A DNA stretch of 64,000 bases from an uncultured delta proteobacterium (GCA_963839305.1 CAWIUL010000011.1:2377561-2441560); one strand, 5' to 3'. Counted from the first letter of the stretch, positions 9,522 to 53,267 are shown. Notes: generated by a model not told the origin, from the letters alone. Program-made: numbers and translations.

Positions 9522-9524
9522 GCC

Positions 9525-9665
9525 GAGCAGTTTTGTTGGTTGTGTCGCGGGGCGGGGGGGCGTGGTTGGCGCGGGGTTTGAGCGGTGGGGTGGGTGTGTT
9601 GAGCGTGCCTGGCCGCTGGGGGGCGGCGAGCGTTGTTGTGCTGGCAGCGCGTGCGAGCGGGTCGA
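9525..9665. repeat. G-rich, GT-rich low-complexity tract with multiple G3-G7 runs
   Basis: The plus-strand sequence is 'ttttgttggttgtgtcgcggggcgggggggcgtggttggcgcggggtttgagcggtggggtgggtgtgttgagcg...gctggggggcggcgag'. It lies between the msrB remnant and the cupin gene. Confidence 0.5.
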
Positions 9666-9694
9666 AGAGCGCGCGAACGCGCCGTAGCCTTCCG

Positions 9695-10070
9695 CCTGAG
9701 CTTGCGACCGGATGAACGCACGACGCCGATTCATGCAGTAGCGAAGCCCGGTGGCTCGGGCGTCGTCGAAACGTGGCCAAGGTGCGAGTCGCGCTCGACG
9801 AACGCATTCGTGCGCTTCATCGAGCTGTTGTCGTTCTTCGTCGTCACCGCCGAGGATCGATGGCTTCGCAAGCTCGGCCAACCCGTGCCCGACTCGAACT
9901 TGTCGTCGAGCTGAAGAGCGGCTGCCCCGTCACGACATCGACGTAGATGCCCGGCTCGTGGTTGTTCCAATACTCGTTACGAAACGGCGGCTCCGTCGCG
10001 TCGTGCTGCGTGACCTCGTATTGAAGCGGCGTCAGCGCCCTCTCGATCTCGGCAGCGGACGGCTTCGTGT
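9695..10070 (-). pseudogene. msrB: Peptide-methionine (R)-S-oxide reductase MsrB, split over at least 3 frames
   Basis: The reverse-complement reads '[37 protein letters not shown]' (frame A). Frame B gives '[12 protein letters not shown]', frame C 'SHLGHV' and frame D 'FDDARATGLRYCMN'. Together these cover the full MsrB signature, including the catalytic RYC. Confidence 0.7.
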
Positions 10071-10299
10071 ACGACGTGCGGGGTGCGTCGTTGGCAACGG
10101 CGGGGGCTGATGCGGTGCGACAAGCTGCGATCGATGACGATCTGCGAGGGCGATGGCTCTCATGCAGGGGATACGCTCACGACGCGTCGGTTTCGCTCAT
10201 TGAACGGTCGGTCAGGTCGCTGGGCTGGCGCGGCGTTGCTCTGGGAAGTGCCGCCGCGGCTCATGGAAGAGAGCACACACAATCGAACGGTCACGCCGA

Positions 10300-11700
10300 G
10301 CCCGAGTCCGCGCTCCCGCTCGCATACACCTTTCATCCCACCCATGAGGAGCTGCTCGCGGAGGGCAAGAGCCTGCGCGACAAGTGCCCGCGCACGTCGC
10401 ACGCGGTCTGGAAGCAGCCGCCACGATCGCGCCCGATCCGCTGCTGCCTCTGGAGGAATCGAACAAGGGACGCATCCCGCAGCTGGTGCCGATTCGCTAC
10501 GGCCGCATGATGCAGTCGCCGTTCACGTTCTATCGCGGGGCGGCGCTCGAACATGGCGGCGGACCTGGCCGCGACGCCGGCGAGCGGCCTGCGCGTGCAG
10601 GCGTGCGGCGACGCTCATCTGATGAATTTCGGCGCGTACGCCACCCCCGAACGCCGCGTGATCTTCGACATCAACGACCTGGACGAGACGCTCCCGGCGC
10701 CCTGGGAATGGGACGTGAAGCGCCTGGCCGCCAGCTTCGTGCTCGCCTGCCGCGACAACGGCTTCAGCGAAGACGACGCGCGCGACGCGGTGCTGACGTG
10801 CGTGCGCTCGTATCGCGAGCACATGGCGGAATACAGCGAGATGCGGGTGCTGGACGTGTGGTACGCGAGCATCGACGTCGAAGAAGCTGCTCGCGACGAT
10901 CGAGGACGAAGAAGCCCGCAAGCGCATTCAGAAGCGCCTGGCGAAGGCGCGGGCACGCAGCGTGCTGGAACACGAGTTTCCCGAGCTCGTCACCATCGAG
11001 CGGCCTGACGCCGACGATCAAGGAGAACCCGCCGCTGATCTATCACTCGCGCGAGAGCAGGGGTCACGAGGAGTTCATGGACGCCGTCCAGAAGGCCTTT
11101 GCCGCCTACCGGGAAACCTTGCAGGAAGACCGGCGCATGCTCCTGGACCGCTTCAAGCTCATGGACATCGCCATCAAGGTGGTCGGCGTCGGCAGCGTCG
11201 GGACCGTACTGTGGCATCATGCTGCTGATGGCGAGCGAGCACGATCCGCTGTTCCTGCAGGTGCAAGGAGGCGCGCCCTTCGGTGCTCGAAGCCGTACGC
11301 GGGCAAGAGCGCGCTACGCCAACCACGGCCAGCGCGTCGTGCATCGGCTGCCGGCTGATGCAATCGGCCAGCGATCTCTTCCTCGGCTGGACCGAGGGCC
11401 GTCGGGCCGGCATTTCTACATCCGTCAGCTCAAGGACATGAAGATCAAGCCGATGGTCGAGGTTTTCACGCCGAGCGTCATGCTGCAGTATGCCGAGTTG
11501 TGCGGCTGGACGCTGGCCCACGCCCACGCCCGCTCCGGCGAGCCGGCGAAGATCAGCGGCTACCTGGGCAAGAGCGACAAGTTCGACGAGGCCATCGCCG
11601 ATTTCTGATCGCCTACGCCGACCAGAGCGAACGCGATCACGCGGGCTCAAAGAGCCGTGAAGGCCGGAAAGCTCCAGGTGATTGTGGAGGACACGAGCTC
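10300..11700 (+). pseudogene. DUF2252-family protein, at least 5 frameshifts
   Basis: Consecutive family-typical segments sit in different frames: 'LVPIRYGRMMQSPFTFYRGAA', 'MAADLAATPASGLRVQACGDAHLMNFG...ETLPAPWEWDVKRLAAS', 'IKENPPLIYHSRESRGHEEFMDAV...VGVGSVGT', 'ASEHDPLFLQV...HFYIRQLKDMKIK...ISGYLGKSDKFDEAIADF' and 'AYADQSERDH'. Confidence 0.65.
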
Positions 11701-12517
11701 CGTCACCGTCCTCACGGGCTTCCTCGGCGCGGGAGAGACACGCTGCTGAATCGCATCTCGAACGCGACACCGCTTGCGCGTGGCCGTCGTGAACGACGTC
11801 GCGATGCACGACGACTTGATCGCATTGGTCGAGCAGGCGCTGCTCGACCCGAACGGCCGAGCACGTGCTGCTCGAAGCGAGAAGCGGCGTGGCCGACCCG
11901 AGGGGTATTCGCGCGACCTTCGCCGATGCCGGCCTCCGCGAGCGCTTCGGCTCGACGGCATCGTGTGCGTCGTCGACGCCGAGCAGTTGCTCGCGTTCCC
12001 GGAGCAGATGGAGCTCAAACTTGGCAAATCGCGACCGCAGATTTGCTCGTCTCGACAAGGTCGACTTGGTGCCGCCCGAGCAGATTGTGAAGATCGATCT
12101 CTGGCTCGATGCGCACTTCCATCGATATCGCATGATCACATCGGTGCGAGGTCGGGTTCCGCTCGACGTTCTCCTCTCGAGCGGGCGCTTCGATCGCGAG
12201 CGCACGACGGGCGCGCGACCCCCGCACGACGACTCGTTCAGCACGTTCAGCTACGAGACCCCGCGCCCGCTCTCGCTCGAGGCGCTGAGCAAGCCGCCTC
12301 GAAGCTGCCGGCGAACATCTACCGCTGCAAAGGGCAAGTGCACACGTCCGACGCGCCCGAGCGGCGCACGGTGCTCCACGTGGTTGGCAAGCGCGTGGAC
12401 ATCGCGACGGGCGAGGCGTGGAGCGGCGCCACGCCGAGCACGCGCATCGTGGTCATCGGCGCGAAGGGGGTGGATGACGACGCGTTGAACGAGACCTTCG
12501 ACGCGTGCACTGCGTGA
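11657..12517 (+). pseudogene. CobW/HypB/UreG-family (COG0523) GTPase, at least 3 frameshifts including one in the P-loop
   Basis: 'VTVLTGFLGAG[e]T..TLLNRI' reads as a P-loop with a 1-nt deletion. 'LDGIVCVVDAEQL' and the CobW C-terminal domain 'IYRCKGQVHTSDAPERRTVLHVVGKRVDIATGEAWSG...VVIGAKGVDDDALNETFDAC' follow. Confidence 0.6.
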
Positions 12518-12629
12518 TCGCCTCTGCTGTTTCACCGCCGGCAAGAACTGCGGGTCGGGTGAACGGCGCGCATGGCGCCCGAAAGCCAAGGCGAATTCGG
12601 GCAGCAACGCGCGACCTGGCGTGCCGGTT

Positions 12630-13773
12630 GCTCTCTCGTCCCAGTCATGAGCAGCGAAGCGGCGAGCAGGCATCTGCATCACGACTTCCTCGCTCTCGAT
12701 GGACTGGCCGTGGCGACGCGTGGGTGCTGGTCGCCATCGTTTGGCTGCCGCTGGCCGTGCTCTCGGCGGTGTCTGGTCGCTTGGTGGGCGGCGTGGCCGT
12801 ACCGCTCCTGTTCGACGTCGACGCCGACGTCAAATTCCTGTTTGCTCTCCCGCTCCTGATTGCAGCGGAGCCGCTCGTTCATCGCCGAATCAGCGACGTG
12901 GTCGAGGAGATCCTGAACGCGGCCTCGTCGCGCCGAGGGACGAGCCACGGTACGAAAAGTTGGTCGCTTGGGCGACGCGCCTTCGCAACTCGACGGTCGT
13001 CGAAGTCGGGCTAATCATCGTCGCGCTCGGCGGATATTCGGTTTGGCGCGCGGGGCCGAGCTTGCACGTCGCGAATTGGTACTCCACGAGCCAGGGAACG
13101 GCCGGTTTCACCCCGGCCGGTTACTGGTACGTGTTCGTCAGCTTGCCCATCGCTCGCTTCGTCTTGTTGCGTTGGTATTTCCGTATCCTCGTTTGGTACT
13201 TGTTCTGTGGAGGCTCTCGCTGACTGGAGCTGAAGCTCGACGGCCTCCACCCCGACCGCGCCGGCGGCCTCGGATTCCTCGGGCACACGCTCAAGGCCAT
13301 GGCGCCGATGCTCGTCGTCCAGAGCGCCTTCTCGGCGGGCGTCATCGGCAACCACATCGTGCACGAGGGCGCAAAGCTGCCCGACTTCAAGTTCGACATC
13401 GCTGGGCTCCTCTTCTTCTTGCTGCTTCAACCCGTGCTGCCTCTGACGTTCTTCTTCCTGCAGATGGCGCGCGCCAAGCGGGCGACGAAGTTCGAGCTTG
13501 CCCGGTTGGCGACTCGTTACTCGCGCGACTTCCAGGAGAAGTGGCTCTCGCACCGACCACCGAGCGACGAGGCGCTGCTCGGCACTCCGGACATCCAATC
13601 GCTGGCCGATCTCGCGACAGCTACGGAGTGGTCCACTCGATGCGGCCGATCCCGTTGATCCGCGGCAGCTTCTTCCGCTCGCGTTCATCGTGGCGATTCC
13701 GCTGTTTCCACTCGCGCTGACGATGGTCCCCCTCGACGAGCTGTTGCGCGGGATCGTCAAGCTGCTCGTGTAG
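12630..13773 (+). pseudogene. Hypothetical polytopic membrane protein, fragmented over at least 4 frames
   Basis: Hydrophobic segments 'WVLVAIVWLPLAVLSAVSGRLVGGVAVPLLF', 'VVEVGLIIVALGGYSVW...YWYVFVSLPIARFVLLRWYFRILVWYLF', 'MAPMLVVQSAFSAGVIGNHIV...LLFFLLLQPVLPLTFFFLQ' and 'LAFIVAIPLFPLALTMVPL' are in alternating frames. I could not assign a family. Confidence 0.35.
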
Positions 13774-13785
13774 CGAGGCCCGCGC

Positions 13786-14653
13786 ATGGATCTGTTCGCG
13801 AAATTTCGACGGCCTTCTCTTAACAACGGCGATGCTCGGCGTCGGGCTCCAGGTGGGCAGCGCCGACATTCGGTCGACGCTCGCGTCGCGCAGCCTGCTC
13901 GTGCGCTCGCTCGTCGTGAACTTCGTGCTCGTTCCCGCCCTCGGCATCCTCATCGTGCGGCTCGTCCCGATGCCTTCGGACACCGCCGCAGGGTTTCTGC
14001 TTCTGGCGCTCGCGCCTGGCGGCATGAGCGCTCTGCAGTTCACGAGCCGAAGCAAGGGAGCTCTCCTCTACGCGGGCGCGCTCTCCTTCATTCTCTCGCT
14101 TTTGTCGGTCTTCGTGTCTCCGGCGATCGCCGGACTTTTGTTGCCGACCAAGTCATCGGTGCCGTTCCCGCGCCTCATCGCGATTCTGCTTTTGTTCGTT
14201 CTTCTCCCGCTCGTTGTCGGAATGGGCGTTCGACAGAAGTCTCCGAAGCTCTCGGAGAAGCTCGCGAAGCCGACCGCCACGCATCGCCACGATCTCGTTC
14301 ATCGCGTTCGTGCTTCACACGATGGTCATACGCAAGAGCGCCATCGCTTTGCACGGATCTGCCGTCATCGGCGCGATGCTCGCGTTCATCGTCGGCGCGA
14401 TGGCGATCGGCTGGGCCCTCGGCGGGCCGGACAAGGAGACCCGCAAAGTGCTGGCGGCGGCCTCGAGCATGCGCAACGCCGCGCTGTGCTCCTCATCGCA
14501 TCGAGGGACTTCCCCGGCACGAACGTCGACGCGGCGGTCGTGGCGTTCGGCGCGTTGATGGTCCCGCCGAACATGCTGTTCGCGCTCTACTCCGCGATCG
14601 GCGTCGACGCGACGAGCGCGGCTACAGCCGCGCAACGCCAAGCCAGAGATTAG
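13786..14653 (+). pseudogene. Bile-acid:sodium symporter (BASS/SBF) family transporter, at least 2 frameshifts
   Basis: 'LGVGLQVGSADIRSTLASRSLLVRSLVVNFVLVPALGILIV...LLLALAPGGMSALQFTS' fits the BASS pattern. It then shifts to 'IATISFIAFVLHTMVIRKSAIALHGSAVIGAMLAFIVGAMAIGWALGGPDKETRKVLAAASSMRNAAL' and again to '...VVAFGALMVPPNMLFALYSAIG'. Confidence 0.55.
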
Positions 14654-17189
14654 GTGATCGAGCGCCCCTCGGCGTCCTCGATCTGCGTGAGGACGACCGC
14701 GAGCGCGTCCTTCGCGCGCTCGAGCGCAGCCCGGTCCTGCTCCCACTTCGCGAACGCCTTCTCGGCGCGCGCCATCTCGCGCGCGTGCGCGCTCTTCGTC
14801 TCGGAGAGCTCCGCGCGAAGCGCCGCGGTCTCGGCCTCGAGCACGACGATGCGGTCCTTGGCGGTCGCGAGATCCTTCTCGAGACCGTCGCGCGCTTGCG
14901 TGAGCTCGCTGACTCGACGCTCGAGATCCGCGATGCGCGACGCGGCCTCTTCGGCTTGCGCGTTCTTCGCCTCGCTGAGCTGCGCCATGTCCGCGCGGAG
15001 CGCGCCGACGGCTTCGTCTCGCGCCCTCTCGATGTCCGCGACCCGCGCGTCGCGCTCGCGCTGCGCCGTCGCGATGCCTTCTTCGCGCGCCTGCTCGGCC
15101 GCGGCGAGCTTCTCGTCGCGATCACGTAGGGCCGCGGCGACCTTCTCGTCGCGATCGTGCTCGGCGGCGGCGATCTTCTCCGCGCCGTCGCGCAGGACCG
15201 CGGCGACCTTCTCGTCGCGATCGCGCTCGGCGGCCGCCACCTTTTCGTCGCGATCCTGGGGCGCCGCAGCGACCTTCTGCTCGCCGTCGCGGAGGGCCGC
15301 GCCGACCTTCTCGTCGCGATCCTGCTCGGCAGCGGCGACCTTCTGCTCGCCGTCGCGGAGGGCCGCGCCGACCTTCTCGTCGCGATCCTGCTCGGCGGCG
15401 GCGACCTTCTCGTCGCGATCGCGCACGGCCGCGGCGACCTCTTCGACGCGACGCTGCTCGGCGGCCTGGAGCTCCGCTGCGCGCTTCGCCTCGAGCTCCG
15501 CCTCTCGCGACGCGAGCTGCGCGGCGGCGGCGTTCCTCGCCTCTTCGAGCTCCTCTTCGTGCTTCGCCTGCGCGAGCGCGACCTCGCTCGCGTGGCGCGC
15601 GGCGATGCCGTCTTTCTCTTGCGAGTGCTCGTTGCGGAGCTTCGACATCTCGTCTTGGTGCGCGCGGTGTAGCGCGCCGAGCCGTGAGTCGTGCTCCGAT
15701 TTGAGCTCGCTCTCGCGCATCGCGAGCGCCTCTTGGAGATCCGACACGGCCTTCTGCTGCGCGGCCTCGAGCGTCGCGGATTTGTCCGCCGCCGCCGCTT
15801 CGAGCGCTGCTGCGCGCTCGGCCTGCTCCTTGGCGAGCGAGCTCTCGTGATCGGCCTTGGCCGCGGCCATCGCCGCTTCGTGGGCCGCGAGGTCCTCCGC
15901 CGCCTTGACGCGCGCGTCTTCGAGCTCGCGCGTGCGCGCGTCGAGCTCGCTCTGGGAGGTCGAGAGCTTCGTCTTCGTGTCGTTCAGCTCGTTGGTCCGC
16001 GACTCGAGCTCGGTCTGCGACTTCTGCAGCCGGTTCTTGAAATCCTCGGAGGCCTTCTTCGCCTGGTCTTTGTCGCGCAGGAGCGCTTCCGCTTTCTCCT
16101 TGCCCTCTTCGACCTCGCGAAGCGTGGAGATGACCTTGTCGTCGAGATCGGCCTTCTGCCGCTCGAACGAGAGCGCGCGCTCGCGAGCCTCGACGATGTC
16201 CTTGTCCTTCTTCCCGAGCTGCTCCTTCAGCGCGAGGAGCTCCTTGTCCTTCTTGTTGAGCGCCTCGCGAAGATCGAGGAACTCGCGGCTCGAGACGCCG
16301 CCCTTCGAGCCTGCGGTGGCGAGCTTCTGTCGAAGCTCGTCCATCTGCTCGTCCATCTTCTTCTGCTCGGCCTCCATGCGCGAGTCGAAGTCGGCGCGGA
16401 GCTGCGCGGCCTCTTCGCGCGCCTTCATCAGCTCTTTCTCGAGCTCCGCGACGCGGCCGTCGTCGACGATCGCGGGGGGCGGCGGCGCGACGCTCTTCTT
16501 CTTCGGTTGCTCGGAGATCTCGGCGACCGTGCTCGTTCCGTTTCCGTTCGCGGACGCCGCGGGCGCGCGGGCCGGTCATCTTCCCGAACCCGCCCTCGAT
16601 GAACGCGTCGATGTCGTCGTCGACGTTCTTCAGCTTCGCGGGCGCTTCGCTCGGCATGCGCTTCGGCGCGGTGGAAGCGCGCTTCGGCGGCGGCGGCGGC
16701 GCAGCGGCCTCTTCACGCTCCACGACGAGCGTGCCCTCTTCTTCGATGTCGATGCTCGAGATCTCGTCGTCGATGACGATCCCCTCGCTGTCGTCGGCGC
16801 TGCCGCGCCGCCACCGAGCTGGATGAACTGGTTGATGTGCTGCAGCAGCTCGCCGAACGCGATCGGCTTGTGCACGTAGTCCTCGGCGCGCGTTCGGAGC
16901 TTCTTGTGCTGCTCGAACGTCTCGTCGCTGGACTCCGTCGACATGATGATCAGCGGGACGTCCTTGAGCTTCCCGTCTTTCTTCAGCTTGTTGCAGACGG
17001 AGAAGCCGTTCATCCGCGGCAGCTCGATCGACAAGAGGATCAGATCGGGTTTGCTCGCCCGCCGCTTGCTGCAAGCCCAGCGTTGCCGTCATCGACGACG
17101 GTCGTTTCGCATCCGAGCTTCGCGAGCTCGCTTCGGAGCTCGCCGGCGAAGGCCGCGTCACTCTCGAACACAAGCACTTTGGTCGACAT
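14650..17189 (-). pseudogene. FrzS-like protein: N-terminal CheY-like (pseudo)receiver domain plus a very long coiled coil with hendecad repeats, at least 3 frameshifts
   Basis: The ATG at 17189 gives 'MSTKVLVFESDAAFAGELRSELAKLGCETTVVDDGNAGL', which continues (shifted) to '..KPDLILLSIELPRMNGFSVCNKLKKDGKLKDVPLIIMSTESSDETFEQHKKLRTRAEDYVHKPIAFGELLQHINQFIQLGG'. This is close to the M. xanthus FrzS N-terminus. A linker then joins in-frame, after another shift, to the 592-aa coiled-coil ORF 14650..16428 ('...EQPKKKSVAPPPPAIVDDGRVAELEKELMKAREEAAQL...'). Confidence 0.65.
15139..15450. repeat. Tandem array of a 66-bp (22-codon) unit inside the FrzS-like coiled coil; two adjacent copies differ by 1 nt
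   Basis: Copy 15271..15336 and copy 15337..15402 ('gaccttctgctcgccgtcgcggagggccgcgccgaccttctcgtcgcgatcctgctcggc[a/g]gcggc') are flanked by diverged copies. They encode repeated 'DRDEKVGAALRDGEQKVAAAEQ'. Confidence 0.8.
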
Positions 17190-17209
17190 TTGAGGGCTTC
17201 GAGAAGCGG

Positions 17210-17852
17210 CTACACGAGAAAGTGCTCTTCACGCGCATTCGCTTTTTCGTCGTGCCCGCTCTGGCCGAAGCGCGGTCCAGCTCGGCGAGCACGTCGCGCA
17301 CCGGGACACCGCGGTGCCGCAGCGCGACCATCAGGTGGTAGACGACGTCCGCCGCCTCGCTGACGACGCGCGCGTCGGCCTCCGCGTCGACGGCGCGCGC
17401 GAGCTCGTCCGCTTCTTCCCGCAGCTTCGCGCCGATTTTCAGCGCGCCGCCGTCGTAGAGGCTCTTCGTGTAGCTCTTCTCGCCCGTGCTCGTTCTTCCG
17501 CGCCTCGAGCACGGACTCGAGCCTCAGCAAGAGCGGCGACGCGCGCGCCGTCGCCGGAAAAGCACGTCTCGCTTCCCGGTGTGGCACGTCGGGCCGCGGG
17601 CCTGGCCGAGGTAGAGCGCCGCGTCCTCGTCGCAGTCGAGCGCGCACCTCGCGCACGTCGATCGCGTTGCCGCTCGTCTCCCCTTTCACCCACGGCGCGT
17701 TTCGCGAGCGCGAGAAGAAGGTCGCGTGCCCTGTCGTTCTTCGTGCGCTCGAGCGCCGCTTCGTCCGCGTACGCGAGCATGCGCACCTCGCCCGTCAGAT
17801 CGTCCTGCACCACGACCGGCATCGAGATCCATGCGTCGAACTCGAACTTCAT
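17210..17852 (-). pseudogene. hisIE: Bifunctional phosphoribosyl-AMP cyclohydrolase / phosphoribosyl-ATP pyrophosphatase HisIE, at least 3 frameshifts
   Basis: The HisI part reads 'MKFEFDAWISMPVVVQDDLTGEVRMLAYADEAALERT' then shifts to 'KGETSGNAIDVREVR' and 'CHTG'. The HisE part reads 'LESVLEARKNE...' and 'AADVVYHLMVALRHRGVPVRDVLAELDR' in other frames. Confidence 0.6.
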
Positions 17853-17870
17853 GCGATGGGGTCATGCTAC

Positions 17871-18917
17871 ACCGCTCGAAAATCGATGGAGCTCGCGTTC
17901 GCCTCGCCCCGAAAGCTGCCGAAGGCCCGAGATCTTCGCGGCCGCGTGGTCGTGCTCGACGTCGCCTTCGCGTCGGAGGCCGTCGGGCGGAGGCTTCGAA
18001 AAGCTCACGCAGCCCGTTCATCGACGGCCTCGGCGCGCGCCTCGGCGGCGTGGGTCGATCACCACGACACGTCCTGCCACGCCAGATACGCGGGCGATCC
18101 CGCTTCGTCCTCTCGACCAAGGCCGAGCACGGCGCCTGCCCCGAGATGGTCACGCCGGAGCTCGTCGCGCGCGTCGGCGCAGGTGGACACGATCGTCTGC
18201 CACAACGACTTCGACGGCCTCTGCAGCGCCGCCAAGTGGATGCGCGGAGGCATCGAGCCCTACCCCGGCGCCGACGACGACGCGCGCGCGATCGACACGC
18301 GCATCGGCACGCCGGGCCCGCACCGCGACGCCGCATCGACCGCGCGCTCCGCGCGCGCCCGCGCGACACCGCGCTCTTCGGCGCTCGATCGTCCGGCACC
18401 TCGCGACGGCCTCGCCGACGCCTCGCTCTGGGGCCCGATCGACGCGGCCGGCGGCGAGCTCGCCGCGATCGAGACCGAGACCCGCGCGCATCGCCGAGGG
18501 CTACGACCGCTCGACCTTTCGGCGTCGACGCGCCGCCCGCACGCGTCGCGTTCGTCGACGCGACCGAAGCGCCACGGCCGCTACGACAAGACGCTGCTCC
18601 TGCTCATCGGCCAGGAGCGCGCGCCGATCGCGGTCGGTGCTCGACGGGGACACGCGTCACGCTCGCCGCCCGTTCGACAGCGGCATGAATTTCCTCGCGA
18701 TTCTCGGGTCTTTCCGGCGGAATGCCGACGCTCGTCTCGATCCCGAAAGACCGGCTCGAGCGAGGCGCATCGCGCTCGGCTCGGCGTCGGAGCGGCCGAC
18801 GCTCGCCGAAGACGCATGATTCGCAAGGCGGCACCCAACCGATGCGGCAGCCGACCATTCGCTGTAAAGATGTACCGCGCTGATGCGCGATTTGTCGACC
18901 TCAGTTCCTACGGTTGA
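17871..18917 (+). pseudogene. DHH-family phosphoesterase (NrnA-like), fragmented
   Basis: 'VDTIVCHNDFDGLCSAAKWMRGG' reads as DHH motif I/II (H-N-D-x-D-G). 'WVDHHD' is a DHH motif and 'GAGGHDR' may be the GGGH motif of DHHA1, in different frames. The call is low-confidence. Confidence 0.3.
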
Positions 18918-18972
18918 CGATTTCACTCGGCGCCGTGGTACTGGACGTTTCACTTTCTGAACGAGGGAGCTC

Positions 18973-20029
18973 GTGACGGTGGCGCAGTGCTTTCGCGACG
19001 CAGCCCGATTTCGAAGAGCAGGGTGGGTGAGAGCGAATGGCCGCAAAAGCCTGGCGGCGAGCGACGTCGCAGCAGAAGAGCCGGTCGACGAGATCTTCTT
19101 CCAGAACGACGCCGTCTCGCTGTGCCTGCTGATCCACCGGCGCGCGAAGACGATGCGCGTGATCGATTTCCGCGCCGGGCCCGACGCAACGCGAAGCGCA
19201 TGTTCGTGCTGTCGCTCGCGCAGCGCGAAGGCGTCGAGAAGGTCTACACGCTCGTCGAGCGCGACGAGGTCGCGACGTGGATGAAGCTCGGCTTCGCCCG
19301 CGAGGGCGAACATCCCCGGCTTCTACAAGCGCAGCGACGCGTTCCTGCTCGGCTGCTCGCGTGCCGACGCCGACGCGCCGCACGGCGAGCCGCTGCAGAG
19401 CGAGATGCGCATCGCGCTCGCGCCGCGCACGAGCGACCTCGACGTCGTCGAGGACGACGACGACGAGCGCCGCCGATCGACGCGCGCGCGCACGAGTTCG
19501 CGGAGAAGACGATCGTGCACGCGAAGAAGCCGCCAAGGAGCTCGCCGGCAAGGCGCTCCCGTCGTGAAGATCGCGCCGGTGCGCGAGAGCGACGCGAAGA
19601 AGGCGCGTCGCGGCTGCGCTCGAAGGCGGGCCGCGCGCTGACGGCGTTCGAGCCGTTCGGTCGCGACGTCGAGCGGCGCTACTTCTCGGTCACGGGCCGC
19701 GGCGGCTTCGAGCTCGTCGCGTCGACCGAGTCGCAGGCGTGCTTCGGCAACGCGTTCCTCGAGCTGCTCACCGCGCCCGAAGACCGACGGCGGAGCGCCT
19801 CGCGACGGTCGGCGTCGCTGCGCGCGCTCTGCGACAAGCTGCTCGCCGAAGGCGTCGTGAGCTGCTTCTCGCTCGCGCCGAGCGACGACGTCGCGCTCGC
19901 GACGGCGTTCGTCTTCAACGGCTTCCGCCGGACGGGTCTCCTGCAGAACCACATGGTGGTCGGCGGCGCGCGCAAGGACGCGATCATCTGGTCGCGCAGC
20001 TCGCGAACCCCGCCGACGAGTCCACGTGA
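18973..20029 (+). pseudogene. Hypothetical protein with two GNAT-like acetyltransferase halves, at least 3 frameshifts
   Basis: The segments are 'VIDFRAGPDA..MFVLSLAQREGVEKVYTLVERDEVATWMKLGFAREGEHP', 'GFYKRSDAFLLGC' and 'ALTAFEPFGRDVERRYFSVTGRGGFELVASTESQACFGNAFLELLTAPED...CDKLLAEGVVSCFSLAPSDDVALATAFVFNGFRRTGLLQNHMVVGGARKDAIIW'. The family assignment is uncertain. Confidence 0.3.
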
Positions 20030-20185
20030 CGAGCGCACGCCGCGCCTTGCGGCCATACAGTACTCGTGGGATAATCCACTTTTACTGTCATTGGCGGTGG
20101 CGACCATGATGAGGCGTCGATCGCGCGTGGGTGTTCTTCTTCGCGCTCGTCGTGGCGAGTCGCCGCCGCGTGCGGCGTCGACCGG

Positions 20186-22309: not shown

Positions 22310-22336
22310 CTTCACGCCCGAGCTTCCAGGCTACCG

Positions 22337-22853: not shown

Positions 22854-22860
22854 GACACCA

Positions 22861-25398: not shown

Positions 25399-25402
25399 AG
25401 GA

Positions 25403-25804: not shown

Positions 25805-25862
25805 GCTCTCTCCTAAATCCGCGACCGCGCGTCCGCAACGCTCGACCGCGGCTGTGGACAAT

Positions 25863-26770: not shown

Positions 26771-27559
26771 CGGCGCGCCGCGAACGACATCCACGACGGG
26801 CGACGATCGCGACGACGAAGATCGAGGCGACGATCGTGAAGACGCACGCGCACCAGTGGACGAAGTACGGGATGTCGACGAGCGAGACGAGAGCGGCCCG
26901 CGCGCGGCGACGTCGACCAGCGCGCGCGCGAGCGCGCCCGACGAAGAGGACGCCGCACGCCGATACACGAGCACGATCGCGCCGACGAGCGCACGGCGAG
27001 CCGAGGTGCGCGGGCGACCGCGACGGCGCGCGACTGCGACCGCGGGCGCGAACTGCGAGACGTCGTGATCGCGAGGAGGACGCGGCAGGAAGCGCGACAT
27101 GCGCGGCCGGCGGCCGATCGCGCGCGTGGCGGCGCGCGGCGGAGGCGCGCTCGACTCGGCGCGGGGATCGTGGCGCTCGACATCGGACGTGCGCTCAGGG
27201 CAGCAGCACCTTCGATGACCGCGCCGTCGTCGCAGACCGCGCGGACGAGGCGCGAGCCCGCCCAGATCGCGACGACGTTCGGCGTGATGCCGACAGTCGC
27301 CGCGTCATGCGCAGCCACCCGCTGCCGTGCGGCGGAGCACGCGCGCCTGCGCGCGCCGGCCCAGCTCGCGCCGTCGCTCGCCGACGAAGAGCGCGAGCAG
27401 GTCGCGCGTGGTCTGCACCGCCTCGAGCTGCGCGTCGAGCGCGGGCGTGAGCGAGAGCGCGTGGCCGCCGGCGCCGACCGTGACCGCGCCGCCGTCGGGC
27501 GAGCGCGCGATCGCCGTGGAGATGCCCGGCGCAGAGCGTGCCGACGATCCGCGATGCCG

Positions 27560-29390
27560 TCATGTCGAGGCGGACGAGCGACGCCATCGTCGCCGCACGC
27601 GACGAACGTCCCGAAGATGAGGCGCGTGACCGCGCGGAGGCGCGTCGTGCACGGCGACGTCCTCCACGAGCGTGATGCGGCCGGCCTTCGAACTGCGCGA
27701 CGCGCCGACGTGCTGCCGGCCTGCGCGCGCTGGCGCTGCGACGGGGCGCTCGCCGACGAGCGTCGAGCGACGCCGGCGTCGTCCACGTGACCGCCGTGGA
27801 ACGTCGACCTCCGCGATCGGGCACCGGCCAGCACCTCGAACGCGCCGATCGCGCTGAGACGCACGAGCAGCCCGCCCGTGCCGAAGAGGAGCGCCTCGCC
27901 CCGCGGCAGGCCACGACGCCGCGGATGCGACGCGCGTCGAAGCCAGGCGGCAGAGCGATGCCGATCCACGTGCCCGCGCTCCCAGCGCGCGACGCCGTTC
28001 GGCGCCGACGCCGATCGCGGACGCTCGCGTCCTCCGCGAACGCCGCCGCGCGCACCATGCCGGGCTTGATCGCTCGGCGTGGCCACGCGCCAAAGCCAGA
28101 GGCCGGATCGGACGTGTCGCCGCGGGGACGCCGGGTACGGCGGGCTCGGCGGAGCTCGCTTGCGGCGACACGGCGACGGGCATGTGCGGGATCGGCGACG
28201 GCGCAGACGGCCGCGTCTTGCTCGCCGCGAGCATCACCGGCAAGTTGCGCGGACGCTCGAACGCGGGACGATCGCCGGAACTTGGCCGCGGCAGGAGCGA
28301 CGCGGCCACGTTCGACACGACGCGGGGACGGTCTCCGCGAACGGGAGCGCGCGCGAGGCGGGCGGCGGCGTCGACGCGCTTCTCTCCGCGGCCGCTTTCG
28401 AGGATCGGCTCGATCGCGCGAGAAGAACTCCTTCACCGTCTCGTGGCGCGCGTCCGGATCGGCGGCGAGCGCGCGGCTGATGCTGCGTGTCGAGGACGCG
28501 CGATCAGGTCGGCGCGCGATCGCGAGCTCGGGCGGCGAGCGACTCGCGCGTCTTCGCGAGCTGCGGGCGCGGCCCGTTCAGGATGCGCGTGACGATGAGC
28601 AGCGGGTTCTCGCCCTCGCGGTACGGGAACGCCGGCTTGCCGGTGAGCATCTCGACGACGATCGCCGCGAGCGAGAACACGTCGGTGCGCGGCGCTGACG
28701 CGCTGGTTGCCCTGCTCGTACTGCTCCGGCGGCGCGTAGCCGAGCGACGCGCCCGCGAGCGTCGCCGTGCGCTGCAGGTTCACGTCGACGAGCTTCACGA
28801 GGCCGAAGTCGGTGACCTTCGCGACCTCGCCGCCCGCTTCGTTCGCGAGCAGGATGTTCGACGGCTTGAGATCGCGGTGAACGACCTTCTGCGCGTGCAC
28901 GACCTCGAGCGCCTGCGAGACCTGGCGCATGATGCGGCGCGCGCGCTCGACCGGCAGGCCGCGCCCGGGCGTCTGCGTCGAGCACCTGCTCGAGCGTCGG
29001 CCCGTTGACGTACTCGAGCACGGTGAACGGCAGCGTGATCGACTCGCCGCCGACGGCGACGTGATCACCGCGATCGCGTGATCGAAGAACCGAACGATGT
29101 GCGGGTTCGGCTGCGCCTGCTGCGAGAGCATGCGCAGCACGTCCGCCTCGCGCTGGAAGCGGTGGAGCGCCTCCGTCGTTGACCGCGTCGGGGCGCAGCA
29201 CCTTGACGATGACGACGAAGCCCGCCCGGCTCGTCCCAGTTCGCGCGTGAAGACCCAACCCTGGCCGCCCTCGCCGATGCGCTCGCGGATGTGGTACGTG
29301 AACCCGCCCGCTCCGCGCGGACTGCCGACGACCGGTCTCGGATGAGGCTGGCGCGGGTCAGACGCGATCGGGAGCCTCGCGGGTCGTTGG
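27560..29390 (-). pseudogene. Eukaryotic-type Ser/Thr protein kinase with a long low-complexity C-terminal region, at least 3 frameshifts
   Basis: The kinase subdomains 'YHIRERIGEGGQGWVF', 'VVIVKVLRP', 'FTVLEYVNGPTLEQVL', 'VVHRDLKPSNILLANEAGGEVAKVTDFGLVKLV', 'GYAPPEQYEQGNQ' and 'SDVFSLAAIVVEM' sit in different frames. Confidence 0.65.
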
Positions 29391-29419
29391 CCCGCCAGCA
29401 AGGCCGCCGTCAGCCTCTC

Positions 29420-29740
29420 GAGGAGCTTGAGCAGAGTCTCTTTGTTGGTGACGCCGACGTGCTGGCCTTTACCTCACCCGCCCTTGAAGACCATCACCGT
29501 GGGAACGCCGCGGATGCCGTACTTCTGACGTGATGCCCGGCGCAGTCGTCGATGTCGAGCTTGCCGACCTTGTACTTGCCGACGTTCTCGTCCGCGATCT
29601 TCTCGACGACCGGCGCGAGCATGCTTGCAGGGGCCGCACCACGTGGCGGTGAAGTCGACGAGCACGGGCGCGTCCGCGCGGAGCACCTCGCTGTCGAAAT
29701 TCGCATCCGAGATCGTGACGACGTTGCTACTGCCAGCCAT
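29420..29740 (-). pseudogene. trxA: Thioredoxin, 2 frameshifts
   Basis: '[39 protein letters not shown]' shifts to '[26 protein letters not shown]' and then to '[16 protein letters not shown]'. Confidence 0.7.
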
Positions 29741-29773
29741 TGAATTCTCCTCTCGAGAGTCTCCGTAAGTTAC

Positions 29774-30865
29774 TCACGGGCGGGGCGAAAATCCAGAAGC
29801 GCCCGGCCCTCCGTCCAGGCTCGCTGGTCTTTCGGGTAGGGATCTGGGTGCTGGAGCGAAGGCGGAGGCGAGGATCGCGCGGGCTGCGCGGGTCATTTCG
29901 GTGGCCGGCGCCGACACCGAGGCGTCCAGCGTCGGACCGTGGGTCTCGAGCCGCACCGCGTCGAGAATGCCGGAAATCCCCGCGAAACGCGCTGCCGGCT
30001 CTCCCGCGAGCGTTTTGCGTCGGCGGTCGAGGAAGTCCCGAAGCGTCTCGCAGGCCGCGTCCGTCTCGCATTCGAGCTCGGCGAAGACGTCCAGCTGCTC
30101 GTCGCGAGACGCGACGGAGAGCGCGACGGCGCGGACCGAAGGATCGCGTTCATCGTCGCCGTCTTTGATTCCGAGGACGCGGCTTCGTCGGCCATGTCGT
30201 TCTTGAGCCGGTCGCGCAACGATTTCGGCAGGACGGCCGTGGCGACGAGGATCGCCGCGCCGTGCGCGCGCGCGATCGCCTCCTTGCGAAGCGCGGCGTG
30301 CTCCGAGTCCGACTCGGCGCGCGGCGAGGCTCCGTCGAGCGCGCCTTGCATCGTCGCGAGGTAATCCCCGCGCGCGACGAGGAGCGGAGAGCCGTCGCGG
30401 TATGCGATCTTCGGACGCGTCGCCTCGCTCAGGATGCCTTCCTGCTCGAGCACGGTCCACGAGCCCCTTTGCGTGAAGCGCGGCGTCGCGCTGCGGATGC
30501 TCATGACGCGCTCGGCGCACTTGGCGAGATCGGCCTCGGCGAGGTCGTGCGTGATCGCGACGCCGAAGACGCCGTCGGGCTTCTCGGGGACGCCGATCGC
30601 GATCGACTTGGCGTGCGCGAGCGGATCGAAGCCGCACTCCTGCGAGACGTCGTTCACTTCCCGCAGCGCGGAGAGCTCGTGCGCGAGCGGAGACTCGCGC
30701 AGCTTCACGAGGTCGAGCGTCGCGAACAAAACGCGCCTTGCGGGATCGCCGACGACGCAGTGCGATCGCGCGCGGCAGGCGCGAGGAAGAACGCGCCCGC
30801 GATCGAGAGCGCGAGCACGACCGCGAGGACGAGCACGTTGCGTTGACGCGTCGTCAGCTTCTTCA
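29774..30865 (-). pseudogene. Hypothetical secreted protein (signal peptide), 2 frameshifts
   Basis: The ATG at 30865 gives 'MKKLTTRQRNVLVLAVVLALSIAGAFFLAPAA'. The body is '...LFATLDLVKLRESPLAHELSALREVNDVSQECGFDPLAHAKSIAIGVPEKPDGVFGVAITHDLAEADLAKCAERVMSIRSATPRFTQRGSWTVLEQEG...' with a shifted C-terminus 'LDVFAELECETDAACETLRDFLDRRRKTLAGEP'. Confidence 0.45.
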
Positions 30866-30940
30866 TCGCCTAGCCGCGCAGCCTAACATCACGAAGCCCG
30901 GAATCTTGACGCCACAACGGAAGAAGCGGACTCTTTCGCC

Positions 30941-31198
30941 ATGCTCGTGGTCCTGGGCATCGCCGCGATGGTCGTGGTCGTCATCGGCGTGGTCGTCGTG
31001 ATGGCGCTCGCGCGAAAACAGGTCGAGCGAGACGAGGCGCCGGCGAGCGAGAAAGGCGATTTCGTCGCGCCCGTCAGCTCGGGGGCTTATCGCTTCCGTC
31101 AACCGGACGAGTCGCCCGAGGACTTCAAAGCACGCGTCGCTCGAGAGAACGAGGAGATCGCTTCGAGCGGTCGTGGAGAGCAACCGCAGACGAAGTGA
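30941..31198 (+). CDS. Small membrane protein (85 aa, one TM helix), intact
   Basis: 'MLVVLGIAAMVVVVIGVVVVMALARKQVERDEAPASEKGDFVAPVSSGAYRFRQPDESPEDFKARVARENEEIASSGRGEQPQTK' has high GC3 and no composition bias. Confidence 0.45.
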   Translation: MLVVLGIAAMVVVVIGVVVVMALARKQVERDEAPASEKGDFVAPVSSGAYRFRQPDESPEDFKARVARENEEIASSGRGEQPQTK

Positions 31199-32204
31199 CG
31201 CGCTTGCGTGACTCGTGGCGCAGGATTTCGAGCGCCTCGACGGCCATGCGAACCGCGAGCGGACCGAGGAGCGCGCCCCACGCGCCGAACGCGGCTATGC
31301 CGCCGATCATCGAGACGAGCACGACGAGCATCGGGAGCTGGAGGTGCCCGAACCGCGCGAGCAGCGGGCGCACGAAGTTGTCGATGAGGCTGATCACGAC
31401 CGCGCCCATGAACCCGATCGCAGTCGCGCGCGCGTAGTCGCCCGTGACGGCGAGCTCGATCGCGAGCGGGATCCACACGAGGCCGGTGCCTATGGCGGGG
31501 ACGAAGGACGCGACCGCCGTGAGCGGCCCGAGCAGCCACGCGCGCGGGACGCCGAGCGCGACGTACGTGATCGTCGCGGTGGTGCCTTGAACGAGCGCGG
31601 TACCACCGCCGCTCACGATGATGCCGCGACCGGTCTCGTGGAACGCGCGCGCGAGGCGCGTGAACGCGCGGTGCGGGATCGGCGCGTGCGCGAGCATCCA
31701 CCGGTAGCTCTTAGGCCGTGCGCCGTGAACGAGTAGAGCGCGGTGACGAAGACGACGAGCCAGAGGAGCACCCACATCGAGACCTGGGCGACGGCCAGGC
31801 CCGCGCGCCACGTGTTCGCCGGGATAGCGCGTCGCGAGGTGGAGCCAGTCGCGGAACGTGTTCGTGTGCGAGCCGTCGCCGCCGAGGAGCACCGCCGAGA
31901 TCGGCTCTTGGCCTTCGTATGCGGCGCGGAGGCGGAAGAGGAGGTCGTGCACGCCGTCGATGACGCCGACGGTGAGCGCGATGACGGGCGCGAGGACGAC
32001 GACGACGAGGAGCGAGACGATGACCGCGGCGCCGCGACGCTGGCCGCGGAGGATCCGCTGGAAGCGGTGGACCACCGGCTGAAGCAGCGCGGCGACCCAC
32101 GCGGCCAGCACGAGCGGCGACCAGAACGGCGCGATCGTGATCGCCGCGGCGATCGCGAGCGCGAGCGTCACGAGGCGAAGCGTCGATCGCGGCACGTCCG
32201 TCAT
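31125..32204 (-). pseudogene. AI-2E family transporter (PerM/YhhT, UPF0118), 2 compensating frameshifts within about 100 nt
   Basis: The 359-aa ORF has the typical TM topology. A local stretch '[15 protein letters not shown]..' is out of frame, while the alternate frame reads '[32 protein letters not shown]'. Confidence 0.6.
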
Positions 32205-32370
32205 GCGACCATCAACAAGGGAAAATCGTGCCGACCCGCGCGGCGGCGATTACGGCCGAAGCTTTCGCGTCCCGCGCGCGCCTCCTGCGGTCGCGCTGCA
32301 AACGATGCGGCCGCGCTTCAGCCGTTTCGTCGCGTAAAGCACAGGTACGCGCCTTGCGACTCGAAATGCG

Positions 32371-33082
32371 ATGGAAGCGGTCCTCCGCGCGCGAAGCCTG
32401 ACGAAGGTCTACCGGATGGGCGAGGTCGACGTCGTCGCGCTCCGCGGGGTCGACCTCGACCTCTACGAGGGCGAGTTCGTCGTGCTGCTCGGCGCGTCGG
32501 GCAGCGGCAAATCGACGCTGCTCAACATCCTCGGCGGGCTCGACGTGCCGACCAGCGGCGACGTGCACTACCGCGATCACGATCTCACGCTCGCCGACGA
32601 GGCCGCGCTCACGCGCTACCGGCGCGAGCACGTCGGCTTCGTCTTCCAGTTCTACAACCTGATCCCGAGCCTCACCGCGCGCGAGAACGTCGCGCTCGTC
32701 ACCGAGATCGCGCGAGACGCCGATGGCGCCGACGAGGCGCTCGACGCTCGTCGGGCTCGGCGAGCGCATGGATCACTTCCCCTCGCAGCTCTCGGGCGGC
32801 GAGCAGCAGCGCGTCGCGATCGCGCGCGCGGTCGCGAAGCGGCCCGACATCCTCTTGTGCGACGAGCCGACCGGCGCGCTCGACTTCCGCACCGGGCGGC
32901 TCGTGCTCGACGTGCTCGAGCAGCGTGAACCGCGAGCTCGGCACGACGACCGCGATCATCACGCACAACGCGCCGATCGCGCGCATGGCCGATCGCGTCA
33001 TCACGATCTCGCGACGGACGCATCAGGAGCGTCGAGCGGAACGCGCGGCGCAAGATCGCGCGCGAGGAGCTGCGAGTGGTGA
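32371..33082 (+). pseudogene. ABC transporter ATP-binding protein (MacB/LolD/DevA-like), about 3 frameshifts
   Basis: The Walker A motif is in '[23 protein letters not shown]'. The signature motif is in '[36 protein letters not shown]' and the H-loop in '[21 protein letters not shown]', in shifted frames. A candidate TGA stop overlaps the GTG of the permease (GTGA). Confidence 0.6.
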
Positions 33083-35460
33083 GCGCGCTCGACAAGAAGC
33101 TCTTTCGCGATCTGCTGCGCCTGCGCGGGCAGGCGCTCACGATCGCGCTCGTCGTCGCGTGCGGCATCGCCGGGCTACGTGACGCTGCAGAGCACGGCGT
33201 ATCGTCGCTCGCTGCGCGCGCGGCGACGCTACTACGAGGCGACGCGCTTCGCCGACGTGTTCGTCGCACTTGAAGCGCGCGCCGAACGAGGTCGCGGCGC
33301 GCGTCGCGGCGATCCCCGGCGTCGCCGTCGTCGGAGACGCGGGTCGTCGACGCAGTGCTGCTGCCCCTCGAGGACATGCCGGAGCCCGCCGTCGGGAAGG
33401 TCGTGACCGTTGCCGGCGAGCGGGCGGCCCGCGCTCTGCGACATCGTGCCTGCGCGAGGGGCGCATGCCGATCGCACGGGCGCGCCGACGAGGCGTCGTG
33501 CTCTCGAGACCTTCGCCGACGCGCACCACCTCGAGCCCGGGCGAGCACGATCCCCGTGGTGATCAACGGCGTGCTGCGCGACGTGCGCGTCGTCGGCATC
33601 GCGCTCTCGCCCGAGTACGTCTTCGCGACGCACCGGCGAGGAGCTCGCCGACGATGCGTCGCTTCGGCGTCCTGTGGATGGATCGCGACGCGATCGCGCC
33701 GGCGTTCGAGCTCGACGGCGCGTTCGACGACGTCGTCGTGCGCCTCGAGCCCGGCGCGAGCGACGCGGCGGTGATCGAGTCGCTCGATCGCATCCTCGAG
33801 CCCTACGGCGGGCTCGGCGCCGTCACGCGCAAGACGCAGCCGTCGGCGCTTCATGTCGTCGCAAGAGCTCGATCAGCTCCGCGCGCTCGCGACGCTCGTG
33901 CCGATCATCTTCCTCGCGTCGCGGCGTTCCTGGTCAACGTCGTCCTCTCGCGCGTCGTCGGGCTCCAGCGCGGCAGATCGCGACGCTCAAGGCGCTCGGC
34001 TACACGAACGGCGAGATCGGCCTTCACTTCGGCAAGCTCGTCGCCGTGATCGCGCTCGCTCGGCACGGCGCCTCGGCGTGGGGCTCGGCGTCTGGCTCGG
34101 GCGCGGCATGCTCGATCTCTATCGACCGTACTTCGAGTTCCCGGACATGACGTATCACCTCGACCTCGGCGTCACCGCGACGGGCGTGGTCGTGAGCCTC
34201 GCCGCTGCGTTCGTCGGCGCGTTCCTCGCGGTGCGCAAGGTCGTGCGGCTCGCCCCCGCGGAGGCGATGCAGCCCGAGCCGCCGCCGACCTACGCGCCGT
34301 CGATCTTCGAGCGGCTCGGGGTCGATCGCGTGCTCGGGGGGCTCGGGCGAATGGTGCTGCGCGAGCTCACGCGCCGCCCGCTCCGCACGCGCTCTCGGTC
34401 GCGGGCCTCGCGCTCGCCGTCATGGGCCTCGTCACTTCGCGCTTCGGCTACGACGCGGTCGACGCGTTCGAGCTCGATGCTCTTCGAGACGGCGCAACGC
34501 GACGACCTCGCCGTCACGTTCCGCAACCCCGCGCCGGACGACGCCGCGCGCGAGATCGCGCACTTGCCCGGGGTGCTCACGACCGAGCGCCTGCGCGTGG
34601 TCCCCGTGCGCGCGCGCATGGGCCCGCGCTTCCGCGACGTGGCGCTCGTCGGCCATCCCGAGGGCGCGCAGCTCCGGCGCGTCTTCGCGTGGCCGCCGAA
34701 GGAGGCGGTCGTGCCGGACGAGGGCGTCATGCTCACGACGAAGCTCGCCGAGATCCTCGACGTGCGGCTCGGCGACGACGTCGCGCTCGAGGTGCTCGAG
34801 GGCGATCGGCGCGTCGTCCACGTCCCCGTCGTCGCGCTCGCGGACGAGGTCTTCGGCCTTCAGGTCCACGCGAGCGAACGCACGCTCCACCGCTTGCTCG
34901 ACGAGCGCGAGGGCGACGACGACCATCGCCGCGCGGATCGACGCGAGCAAGGAGCCGACGATCGAGCGAGCGCTTCGCGACATGCCGAACGTCGCGAGCG
35001 TCGTGCGCCGGCGCGACGATGCGCGACGAGTTCCATTCGCAATGGGCGAGACGATGTGGACCGAGTCGCTCATCCTCACGCTCTTCTCGATCGTGATCGC
35101 CGTGGGCGTCGTCTACAACAACGCGCGCATCGCGCTCTCGATGCGCGCGCGCGACCTCGCGAGCCTGCGCGTCCTCGGCTTCACGCGGCGCGAGATCTCG
35201 ACCGTGCTCCTCGGCGAGCTCGCGACCAACGTCGCGCTCGCGGTCGCTTCCGGGGCTCGTGCTCGGCTGGCTCGTGCTCACGCGCGGAATGCCGCGAATG
35301 GTCGACCCCGAGCTGATGCGGTACCCGGCGCTCACGTCGGACAAGACGTTCGCGCTCGCGGTCGCTCGTGCTCTTCGCCTCGGCGCTCGCGACGGCGCTC
35401 GCCGTGCGGCGCAGGTTGGACAAGCTCGATTTGATCGAAGTGTTGAAGACGAGGGAGTGA
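33076..35460 (+). pseudogene. ABC transporter permease with two FtsX domains (MacB/DevC-like), at least 6 frameshifts
   Basis: '[33 protein letters not shown]', '...IAALKALGYTNGEIGLHFGKLVAV...', 'MTYHLDLGVTATGVVVSLAAAFVGAFLAVRKVVRLAPAEAM' and 'TMWTESLILTLFSIVIAVGVVYNNARIALSMRARDLASLRVLGFTRREISTVLLGELATNVALAV..' lie in different frames. Confidence 0.55.
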
Positions 35461-35461
35461 C

Positions 35462-36666
35462 GATGGCCAAGCGAAACGGACGACGATGGGTGCGACGCGC
35501 GACTCGCGGCGGCGTTCGTCGTCGTGGTCGCGGCGCTCCTCGTGGTCGTGTGGATGCCCAAGCCGCTCCCGGTCGAGACCGCCCGCGTCGCGCGCGGCCC
35601 CATGCGCGTCACGGTCGACGAGACGGCGAAGTCGCGCGTGCGGGATCGCTACGTCATCAGCGCGCCGCTCTCGGGCGATCTGCTGCGCGTCGAGCTCCAC
35701 GCGGGCGACGCGATCGAACGCAGCGCCGTGCTCGCTCGCATCGTCCCCACGGCGCCGCCGCTGCTCGACGCGCGCGCGCGCCTCGAAGCAGGCAGCAGGC
35801 TCGCGGCGGCGCTGGCGACGCAGAAACAGGCCTCGGCGACGAAGGCCCGCGCCGACGTCGCGTTCGAGCACGCGCAGAAGAACGCGGCGGACGCGCAGCG
35901 ACTCTTCGACACGAAGGCCATCAGCGAGACCGAGCGGCGCAACTCCGAGCTCGACGAGCGCCTGAAGCGCCAAGAGGTCGCGTCGGCGAGCTTCGCCGTT
36001 CAAGTCGCCGACAACGAGGTCGAGCTCGCGCGCGCCGCCATGTTGCGCGTCGCGCCGAGCAGCGGCTCCGAGCAGCTCGACGTGACCGCGCCCGGAAGCG
36101 GCGTCGTCCTCCACGTGATGCGCGAGAGCGCCGGGTTCATCCAGGCCGGCACGCCGCTCGTCGAGGTCGGCGATCGTCACAACCTCGAGATCGTGTGCGA
36201 CGTCCTCACGAGCGACGCGGTCACGGTGAAGCCGGGCGCCAGGGTGTATTTCGAGCGCTGGGGCGGCGGGCGCCCGCTCGAGGGCCACGTGCGGCTCGTC
36301 GAGCCCGCGGCCTTCACGCGCATCTCGGCGCTCGGCGTCGAAGAGCAGCGCGCGCCGGTGATCATCAATCTCGACTCGCCGCCCGCGGAGTGGGCCGCGC
36401 TCGGCGACGGTTACCGCCTCGACGCGCACGTCGTCGTCTGGGAGAACCCCGACGTGCGCACGGCGCCTTCGAGCGCGGTGTTTCGCTCGGAGGGCGCGTG
36501 GGCCGTCTACGCGGTGCGCGACGGTCGCGCGCGCCTCACGCGCGTCGAGGTGGGACGACGAAACGACACGACCGTCGAGGTCACGGGCGGCCTCGGAGAC
36601 GGCGACGTCGTCGTCATGCACCCGAGCGATCGCCTCGTGAACGACACGCGCGTCGTCACGCGCTAG
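35462..36666 (+). pseudogene. HlyD-family periplasmic adaptor / membrane-fusion protein (MacA/DevB-like); one frameshift near the N-terminus, otherwise intact
   Basis: The ATG at 35462 gives 'MAKRNGRRWVRR', which shifts into the 380-aa ORF 35524..36666 ('VAALLVVVWMPKPLP...ARVARGPMRVTVDETAKSRVRDRYVISAPLSGDLLRV...'). It follows the permease by 1 nt. Confidence 0.65.
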
Positions 36667-53263: not shown

Positions 53264-53267
53264 CCCT

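Follow-up and report, generated by a model that had tools for sequence, protein, structure and literature searches.

A 27-kb patch of frameshifted genes in an uncultured delta proteobacterium, very probably a residual long-read sequencing artefact

Why should some 27 kb of bacterial DNA carry gene after gene broken by frameshifts, when the genes at either side are intact? The question is raised by a stretch of 64,000 nt from an uncultured delta proteobacterium (GCA_963839305.1, CAWIUL010000011.1:2377561-2441560), which was analysed as a whole and is called here the window. An earlier prediction for this locus favoured a local sequencing or assembly error, and the work described below leads us to the same place: the patch is, with high probability, a technical artefact, left by a poorly covered or unpolished consensus of single-molecule long reads whose error profile resembles that of PacBio continuous long reads (CLR). 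This verdict rests on arguments from the mutation spectrum, which would set the insertions and deletions (indels) of the patch apart from those expected of a biological process.

Extent of the frameshifted patch

Plain lists of open reading frames (ORFs) are uninformative in this window because of its GC content of ~70%, and coding frames were followed by a Viterbi segmentation of codon usage, trained on the clean genes of the window. The frame changes every 50-500 nt between ~8.9 and 35.5 kb, compared with segments of 700-2300 nt elsewhere. Together with frameshift-aware alignment and with Pfam matches spanning the junctions, the segmentation delimits an error-rich patch at 8886..35475. The original prediction had placed it at 9600-36000; its existence is confirmed, with the left edge moved to the end of mtaD (~8886) and the right one to ~35475.

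When segments in different frames were concatenated, Pfam matches across the junctions were recovered for SelR (msrB), CobW, SBF (BASS), Cupin_2, PRA-CH/PRA-PH (hisIE), Response_reg (frzS-like), Peptidase_S49 (sppA), Metallophos, Pkinase, Thioredoxin, AI-2E_transport, ABC_tran, FtsX and HlyD, and a DUF2252 protein rebuilt from five frame segments reached E=3.6e-89. Matches to PD40 and Big_2 were marginal, slightly under the Pfam gathering scores. The list of recognisable families advanced before is in this way recovered, save for a 'DHH' label that was not confirmed.

Individual shifts were mapped with a protein-to-DNA aligner permitting shifts of +/-1 and +/-2 nt, for which intact orthologues from syntenic metagenome contigs served as references. 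At orthologue identities of 35% or less the aligner over-calls, as seen by 12 false shifts in the clean gene of a methyl-accepting chemotaxis protein aligned to L012; counts were taken from relatives of at least 50% identity only, mostly at least 60%. The flanks, already described as clean, gave no shifts in 4.9 kb of genes at the left (L088/L097 orthologues, 65-85% identity), with a possible single event at the extreme end of mtaD (8886), and none in 3.3 kb at the right (SpoU, GrpE, DnaK and HMGL against L127, 83-95% identity). Over 16.6 kb of patch genes the aligner called 163 shifts, almost all of which recurred with a second or third relative, so that the proposed ~27 kb of frameshift-broken genes is borne out with a denser damage than first thought. 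If the patch rate were applied to the left-flank genes, the absence of shifts there would have P ~1e-27. Over the whole patch, at least 175 events were mapped via orthologues, and ~35 more were seen only as frame switches.

By gene, the tally comprises 13 shifts in DUF2252, 5 in a membrane protein, 4 in the frzS-like gene, 6 in hisIE, 12 in each of p6 and p7, 33 in PD40, 4 in DUF2505, 28 in SppA, 19 in a metallophosphoesterase, 21 in the kinase (34 when its full length is aligned to L127), and 3 in each of trxA and p333. From 17.2 to 29.7 kb, nine genes accumulate 138 shifts in 11.0 kb, or 12.5 per kb, at a homogeneous rate (chi-square 4.2, p=0.84), the per-base rate being independent of the gene. 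Where the patch is densest the shifts are spaced by 65-100 nt, tighter than the 100-400 nt of the first reading because many of them form compensating runs. The main features of the window, in order, are the following.

1..8885, no strand assigned: clean left flank (che genes, mtaD), 0 shifts in the L088/L097 alignment
8886..35475, no strand assigned: error patch, ~25 genes hit by indels of +/-1 nt (rarely +/-2)
10301..11692, plus strand: DUF2252 gene, 13 shifts, each backed by at least two of three orthologues (L002, L009, L049)
14653..16550, minus strand: shift-free island over the coiled coil of the frzS-like gene (1.9 kb aligned to L087 with no shift)
16551..17198, minus strand: receiver domain and linker of the frzS-like gene, 4 shifts at ~16570, 16793, 17050 and 17075 (L087/L102 alignment)
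17240..17841, minus strand: hisIE, 6 shifts (alignment; Pfam PRA-CH, PRA-PH)
20106..22306, plus strand: PD40/Big_2 protein gene, 33 shifts (alignment to P0001/P0007/L105)
22793..25381, plus strand: sppA (860-aa type), 28 shifts (L092, L107, L086; each backed by a second relative)
27208..29317, minus strand: Ser/Thr kinase, 34 shifts against the 716-aa L127 orthologue; Pkinase match
29417..29743, minus strand: trxA, three 1-nt insertions at ~29620, 29538 and 29522 (codon comparison with L127)
29868..32205, minus strand: shift-poor stretch, 4-5 shifts in 2.3 kb (alignment)
32366..35475, plus strand: MacB-like ABC ATPase and FtsX permease, at least 22 frame switches (Pfam ABC_tran, FtsX; Viterbi segmentation only, there being no close orthologue)
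35476..36663, plus strand: HlyD-family gene in one frame, right edge of the patch (Viterbi segmentation; HlyD match)
38877, minus strand: isolated +1 insertion in pmbA (alignment; nucleotide view)
42627..43061, minus strand: three isolated +1 insertions in Omp85/BamA, at 42627, 42868 and 43061 (alignment; nucleotide view)
46612, minus strand: isolated +1 insertion in tamB (alignment; nucleotide view)
46700..64000, no strand assigned: clean right flank, 0 shifts in SpoU, GrpE, DnaK and HMGL against L127

Beyond the patch to the right there are exactly five further events, every one of them +1, in the same three genes (pmbA, Omp85 and tamB) where a few extra shifts had been suspected. TldD, a small metallophosphoesterase and DUF4833 showed no shifts by frameshift-aware alignment and are intact. 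Frame changes at 37917, 39274, 54544 and 63349 were considered as shifts and rejected, as they are gene boundaries. RNA genes provided no additional witnesses of indels, since the window contains neither tRNA genes nor Rfam matches.

The patch itself is interrupted by islands with no or few shifts, at 14653-16550, ~25.3-25.95 kb and 29.9-32.2 kb. The first of them, at the local rate, would lack shifts with P ~5e-11, and the adjacent receiver and linker part of the frzS-like gene keeps 92-94% identity to L087/L102 on either side of its shifts. In the third one, the sites are located at ~30137 and 30727 in a hypothetical protein of 333 aa, and at ~31707 and 31814 in the AI-2E transporter. GC content was considered as a cause of the patch or of its islands, and only a weak correlation was obtained (rho 0.23-0.31). 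The internal islands and the dirty parts have equal GC, and the right edge at 35476-36663 is grouped with the islands that GC leaves unaccounted for.

Spectrum of the indels and of the substitutions

One check proposed earlier was whether, in alignment to a close relative, every shift is a single-base indel. This is so for 101 events of +1 and 45 of -1, and not for 11 of +2 and 6 of -2, extra bases outnumbering missing ones by ~2:1. Insertions and deletions follow each other in random order, as an alternating +1/-1 pattern was tested and did not hold (39 alternating against 50 same, p=0.29).

A usual suspect for this kind of damage is the miscalling of homopolymer lengths, left uncorrected in data from 454, Ion Torrent or Nanopore R9-type platforms, which the original prediction offered as a possible sub-mechanism. 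Such errors commonly lead to frameshifts when assemblies are made from long-read or flow-based data (PMC9262707), and the genes of draft assemblies are frameshifted by them much as they are here. The shifts of the patch, unlike those errors, lie off homopolymers: in windows of +/-20 nt, shift sites and random positions are equally close to runs of at least 4 or at least 5 (16% both), the run-length spectra of patch and flanks are the same, and only ~12 runs of at least 5 in the patch would have to explain at least 200 shifts. A C6 run at 16474-16479, the same G6/C6 run of ~16.48 kb where a shift had been placed before, is read correctly and in frame. Moreover, insertions prevail, and the inserted bases are mostly unlike both neighbours: for 36 of 56 well-resolved insertions (flanking alignment of at least 70% identity) no best-scoring candidate base equals a neighbour. 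Uncorrected homopolymer miscalls are, with this evidence, a very unlikely source of the patch.

The same comparison makes replication slippage unlikely, because the extra base mostly differs from both of its neighbours. In Omp85, the event at 42627 is an extra C (GCG-[C]-AAA), with 15 of 15 following bases and 13 of 15 preceding bases matching L127. For trxA, the codon comparison with L127 shows an A gained within TCG, giving TC[A]G.

Genuine inactivation, by which a block of 27 kb of genes would have been recently silenced through real indel mutations, has some facts on its side. The indels are present in the deposited sequence, the orthologues are intact in relatives, so that inactivation would be lineage-specific, and the patch includes accessory DNA that some relatives lack (8.9-14.65 kb and 32.3-36.7 kb). 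Decaying regions in Mycobacterium leprae and in recently host-restricted bacteria likewise present many adjacent disrupted genes whose orthologues are intact in relatives. Real decay, however, brings nonsense and missense mutations, deletions and insertion sequences (IS) together, with relaxed constraint, and spontaneous mutation in bacteria is dominated by substitutions, with a minority of indels concentrated in runs. In the patch we find only short indels, nearly all of +/-1 nt, at 1-1.6% per base and with no extra substitutions.

Stop codons had not been noticed in the conserved segments, and that statement needs one amendment: there is a single in-frame stop, a TGA at 29474-29476 in trxA, which results from a T insertion and, 5 nt further on, a lost base; undoing both yields GGEVKGQ, identical to L127. 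No genuine nonsense codon was found in 5,586 corrected codons, nor is any hidden in alignment gaps. Random substitutions would create a stop in these frames in 2.8% of cases, and at 5 substitutions per indel ~23 stops would be expected (P=2e-9 for one or fewer), with ~10% of extra amino-acid change, whereas the patch reaches up to 16 frameshifts per kb without one.

Missense decay, the other expected sign of pseudogenes, was equally absent in a relative-rate test with triplets of the window, a close relative (L087 or L088) and an outgroup (L097 and others), restricted to codons with the same reading in both alignments and more than 12 nt away from any shift. With L087 and L097, clean genes have 23 changes unique to the window and 39 unique to the relative, and patch genes have 70 and 93, respectively; the window branch shows no excess of amino-acid change. 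The Viterbi segmentation also indicates that the codon-usage periodicity of the original frames is fully retained. Furthermore, the indels fall outside runs with inserted bases unlike their neighbours, contrary to slippage, and genes as different as hisIE, trxA, sppA, frzS and the kinase were struck at an equal per-base rate. All this makes a block of real pseudogenes highly improbable.

Origin of the patch and its public record

A protein search with the rebuilt PD40 protein returned among its matches P0048, which is letter-for-letter the window ORF at 20186-21844 (552 aa), a chimera that alternates the true PD40 frame with a wrong one. P0048 and the DnaK of the window (P0121) are encoded on one NCBI/ENA contig of 3,654,228 bp. 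As P0048 is an ORF of the broken sequence on a public contig, the frameshifts are present in the public assembly, and a contig of this length suggests the use of long reads. None of the proteins clustering with the DnaK of the window reached 90% identity, and the collections searched contained no other assembly of the species.

Six in-frame blocks scanned against metagenomes, together with a contig look-up, led to the syntenic relatives L087, L088, L092, L097, L107, L120 and L127, which in clean genes are 81-95% identical to the window at the amino-acid level. Orthologues of the broken genes are single intact ORFs in every one of these relatives. These relatives bear on two more explanations, one of which is a collapsed consensus of mixed strains, where a polisher merged two diverged strains into mosaic indels, an artefact of heterogeneity and not of coverage. 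The source may be metagenome-assembled, as the closest relatives are all metagenome-assembled genomes (MAGs) or metagenome contigs, a relative with 95% amino-acid identity exists in a Joint Genome Institute (JGI) metagenome, and there are accessory segments within the patch. Merged strains would mainly predict mosaics of substitutions together with in-frame differences; substitutions are not raised, and the observed changes are random single-base insertions at ~1%, which leaves this explanation improbable.

The second one would be a repair at expression, through programmed recoding, ribosomal frameshifting, or RNA editing by insertion and deletion. Nothing speaks for it except the perfectly recognisable original frames. 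As in the programmed ribosomal frameshifting of prfB, dnaX or the transposases of the IS3 family, one protein would be read from two frames, although programmed frameshifting relies on a single slippery site in each gene, conserved among orthologues, and here we find up to 34 unconserved sites per gene in both directions. The density of 10-16 shifts per kb comes with no common sequence context and is limited to one stretch, whose neighbour genes require no correction, and the orthologues of relatives (L087, L088, L092, L127 and P0001) are encoded in one frame each. To our knowledge, no bacterial system corrects expression in this way, and we give the idea almost no credence.

We therefore return to the residual sequencing error, a reading favoured because the process is indel-only, insertion-biased, context-free and blind to genes, acts at 1-1.6% per base and affects one patch of a multi-megabase contig. 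The uniform rate, the inserted-base test and the lack of stops and of excess substitutions support the local error originally proposed. A consensus built from too few or unpolished reads would leave a spurious extra or missing base at ~1-1.5% of positions, and the data would be of PacBio-CLR type, or corrected but unpolished reads with ~1% residual error. In raw PacBio RS II reads, insertions amount to 8%, deletions to 3.2% and substitutions to 1.7%, uniformly spread, and ~1% error remains in consensus-corrected reads (PMC7671305); gene fragmentation by long-read errors is a recognised problem (PMC12007338). The likeness to indel errors of PacBio CLR and Oxford Nanopore Technologies (ONT) reads (Kastor target, PMC12007338; PMC7671305) extends to the splitting of conserved genes, the order insertions > deletions >> substitutions, the roughly uniform spread with ~1% of residual error, and the chimeric or truncated ORFs put out by gene callers. 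Unlike the typical case, the errors form here one 27-kb patch with clean islands, plus five stragglers, in an otherwise clean contig. This mosaic of dirty and clean segments may reflect accurate anchors, such as short-read ones, or better-covered segments, bridged by poorly covered long-read sequence.

Several points weigh against this interpretation. The artefact is deduced from the sequence itself. The sharp islands, one of them with 1.9 kb free of shifts, are not accounted for by composition and have to be attributed ad hoc to coverage or to a hybrid assembly. No near-identical intact copy (at least 90%) of the patch genes appeared in the collections searched, where the best matches peaked at 61% for PD40, at 80% in the six-block metagenome scan and at 80% for a five-segment chimeric protein query; a genome-contig scan for DUF2252 showed a wide and patchy family with best matches in Planctomycetes at 77-80% and no close relative. 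The assignment to a platform is a guess; ONT reads are the less likely source, since neither a homopolymer bias nor a deletion bias is seen.

If the indels were real, on the other hand, a free-living Polyangiales-like host would need either an insertion-biased, non-slippage, indel-only mutational burst within a 27-kb segment or a decoding via some correction mechanism, with codon usage and amino acids otherwise untouched, which we hold to be extremely unlikely. Under the favoured sequencing error, the patch is not a real biological feature and its genes are ordinary housekeeping and envelope genes, which would be intact in their Polyangiales-like host.

The biological weight of the finding is small, and its practical value lies in data quality. 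One patch of the deposited contig would hold 200 or more spurious indels, chimeric ORFs such as P0048 have already spread to public protein collections via gene callers, and analyses using this genome (pseudogene counts, completeness, pangenome, selection) would be distorted. An error patch of this kind can be diagnosed without the reads, by weighing indels against substitutions and insertions against deletions, by comparing inserted bases with their neighbours, and by a relative-rate test against syntenic relatives.

Accessory segments and further observations

The block at 8900-14650, with cupin, msrB, DUF2252, cobW, a membrane protein and a BASS transporter, is missing from L087 and L088, where mtaD directly adjoins the frzS-like gene, and is probably an accessory insertion in the lineage of the window. 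The closest matches of its DUF2252 are found in MAGs of Planctomycetes. A second accessory segment overlapping the patch is the MacB-like ABC/FtsX/HlyD cluster at 32366-36663, missing in L127 (17492-19087), where the AI-2E transporter comes immediately after DUF4833. The PD40/Big_2 gene (20106-22306) is present in L087, L097 and L105, and missing in L088 and L092, where a DUF2505-like gene comes immediately after p7.

At the left edge of the patch, the C-terminus of MtaD (8880-9002) continues for ~35 residues beyond the stop point of all relatives, with a possible 7-aa duplication (RKLVAP/RKLCA) in the extension, and the first indel of the patch may have cost MtaD its stop. Compared with L087, the coiled coil of the frzS-like gene (15043-15313, minus strand) has additional in-frame repeats of DRDEKVAAAE type, and this difference is a real length polymorphism within an error-free island.

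In the right flank, a hypothetical lipoprotein at 57864-58718 has a homologue with 95% identity (P0123) on a syntenic contig of 4.6 kb from the JGI metagenome 3300075153, and therefore a close relative of the organism is present in that sample. An IS element had been listed for 48.8-64 kb; the ORF at 60908-62251 (minus strand) is no IS element, being DsbD-like (DsbD_TM and Thioredoxin_7). Transposase-like remnants with lower GC occur at ~60.06-60.9 kb, just upstream of this ORF. Finally, two adjoining small lipoprotein-like paralogues at 63057-63619 share a conserved C..I.DR...V..K motif.

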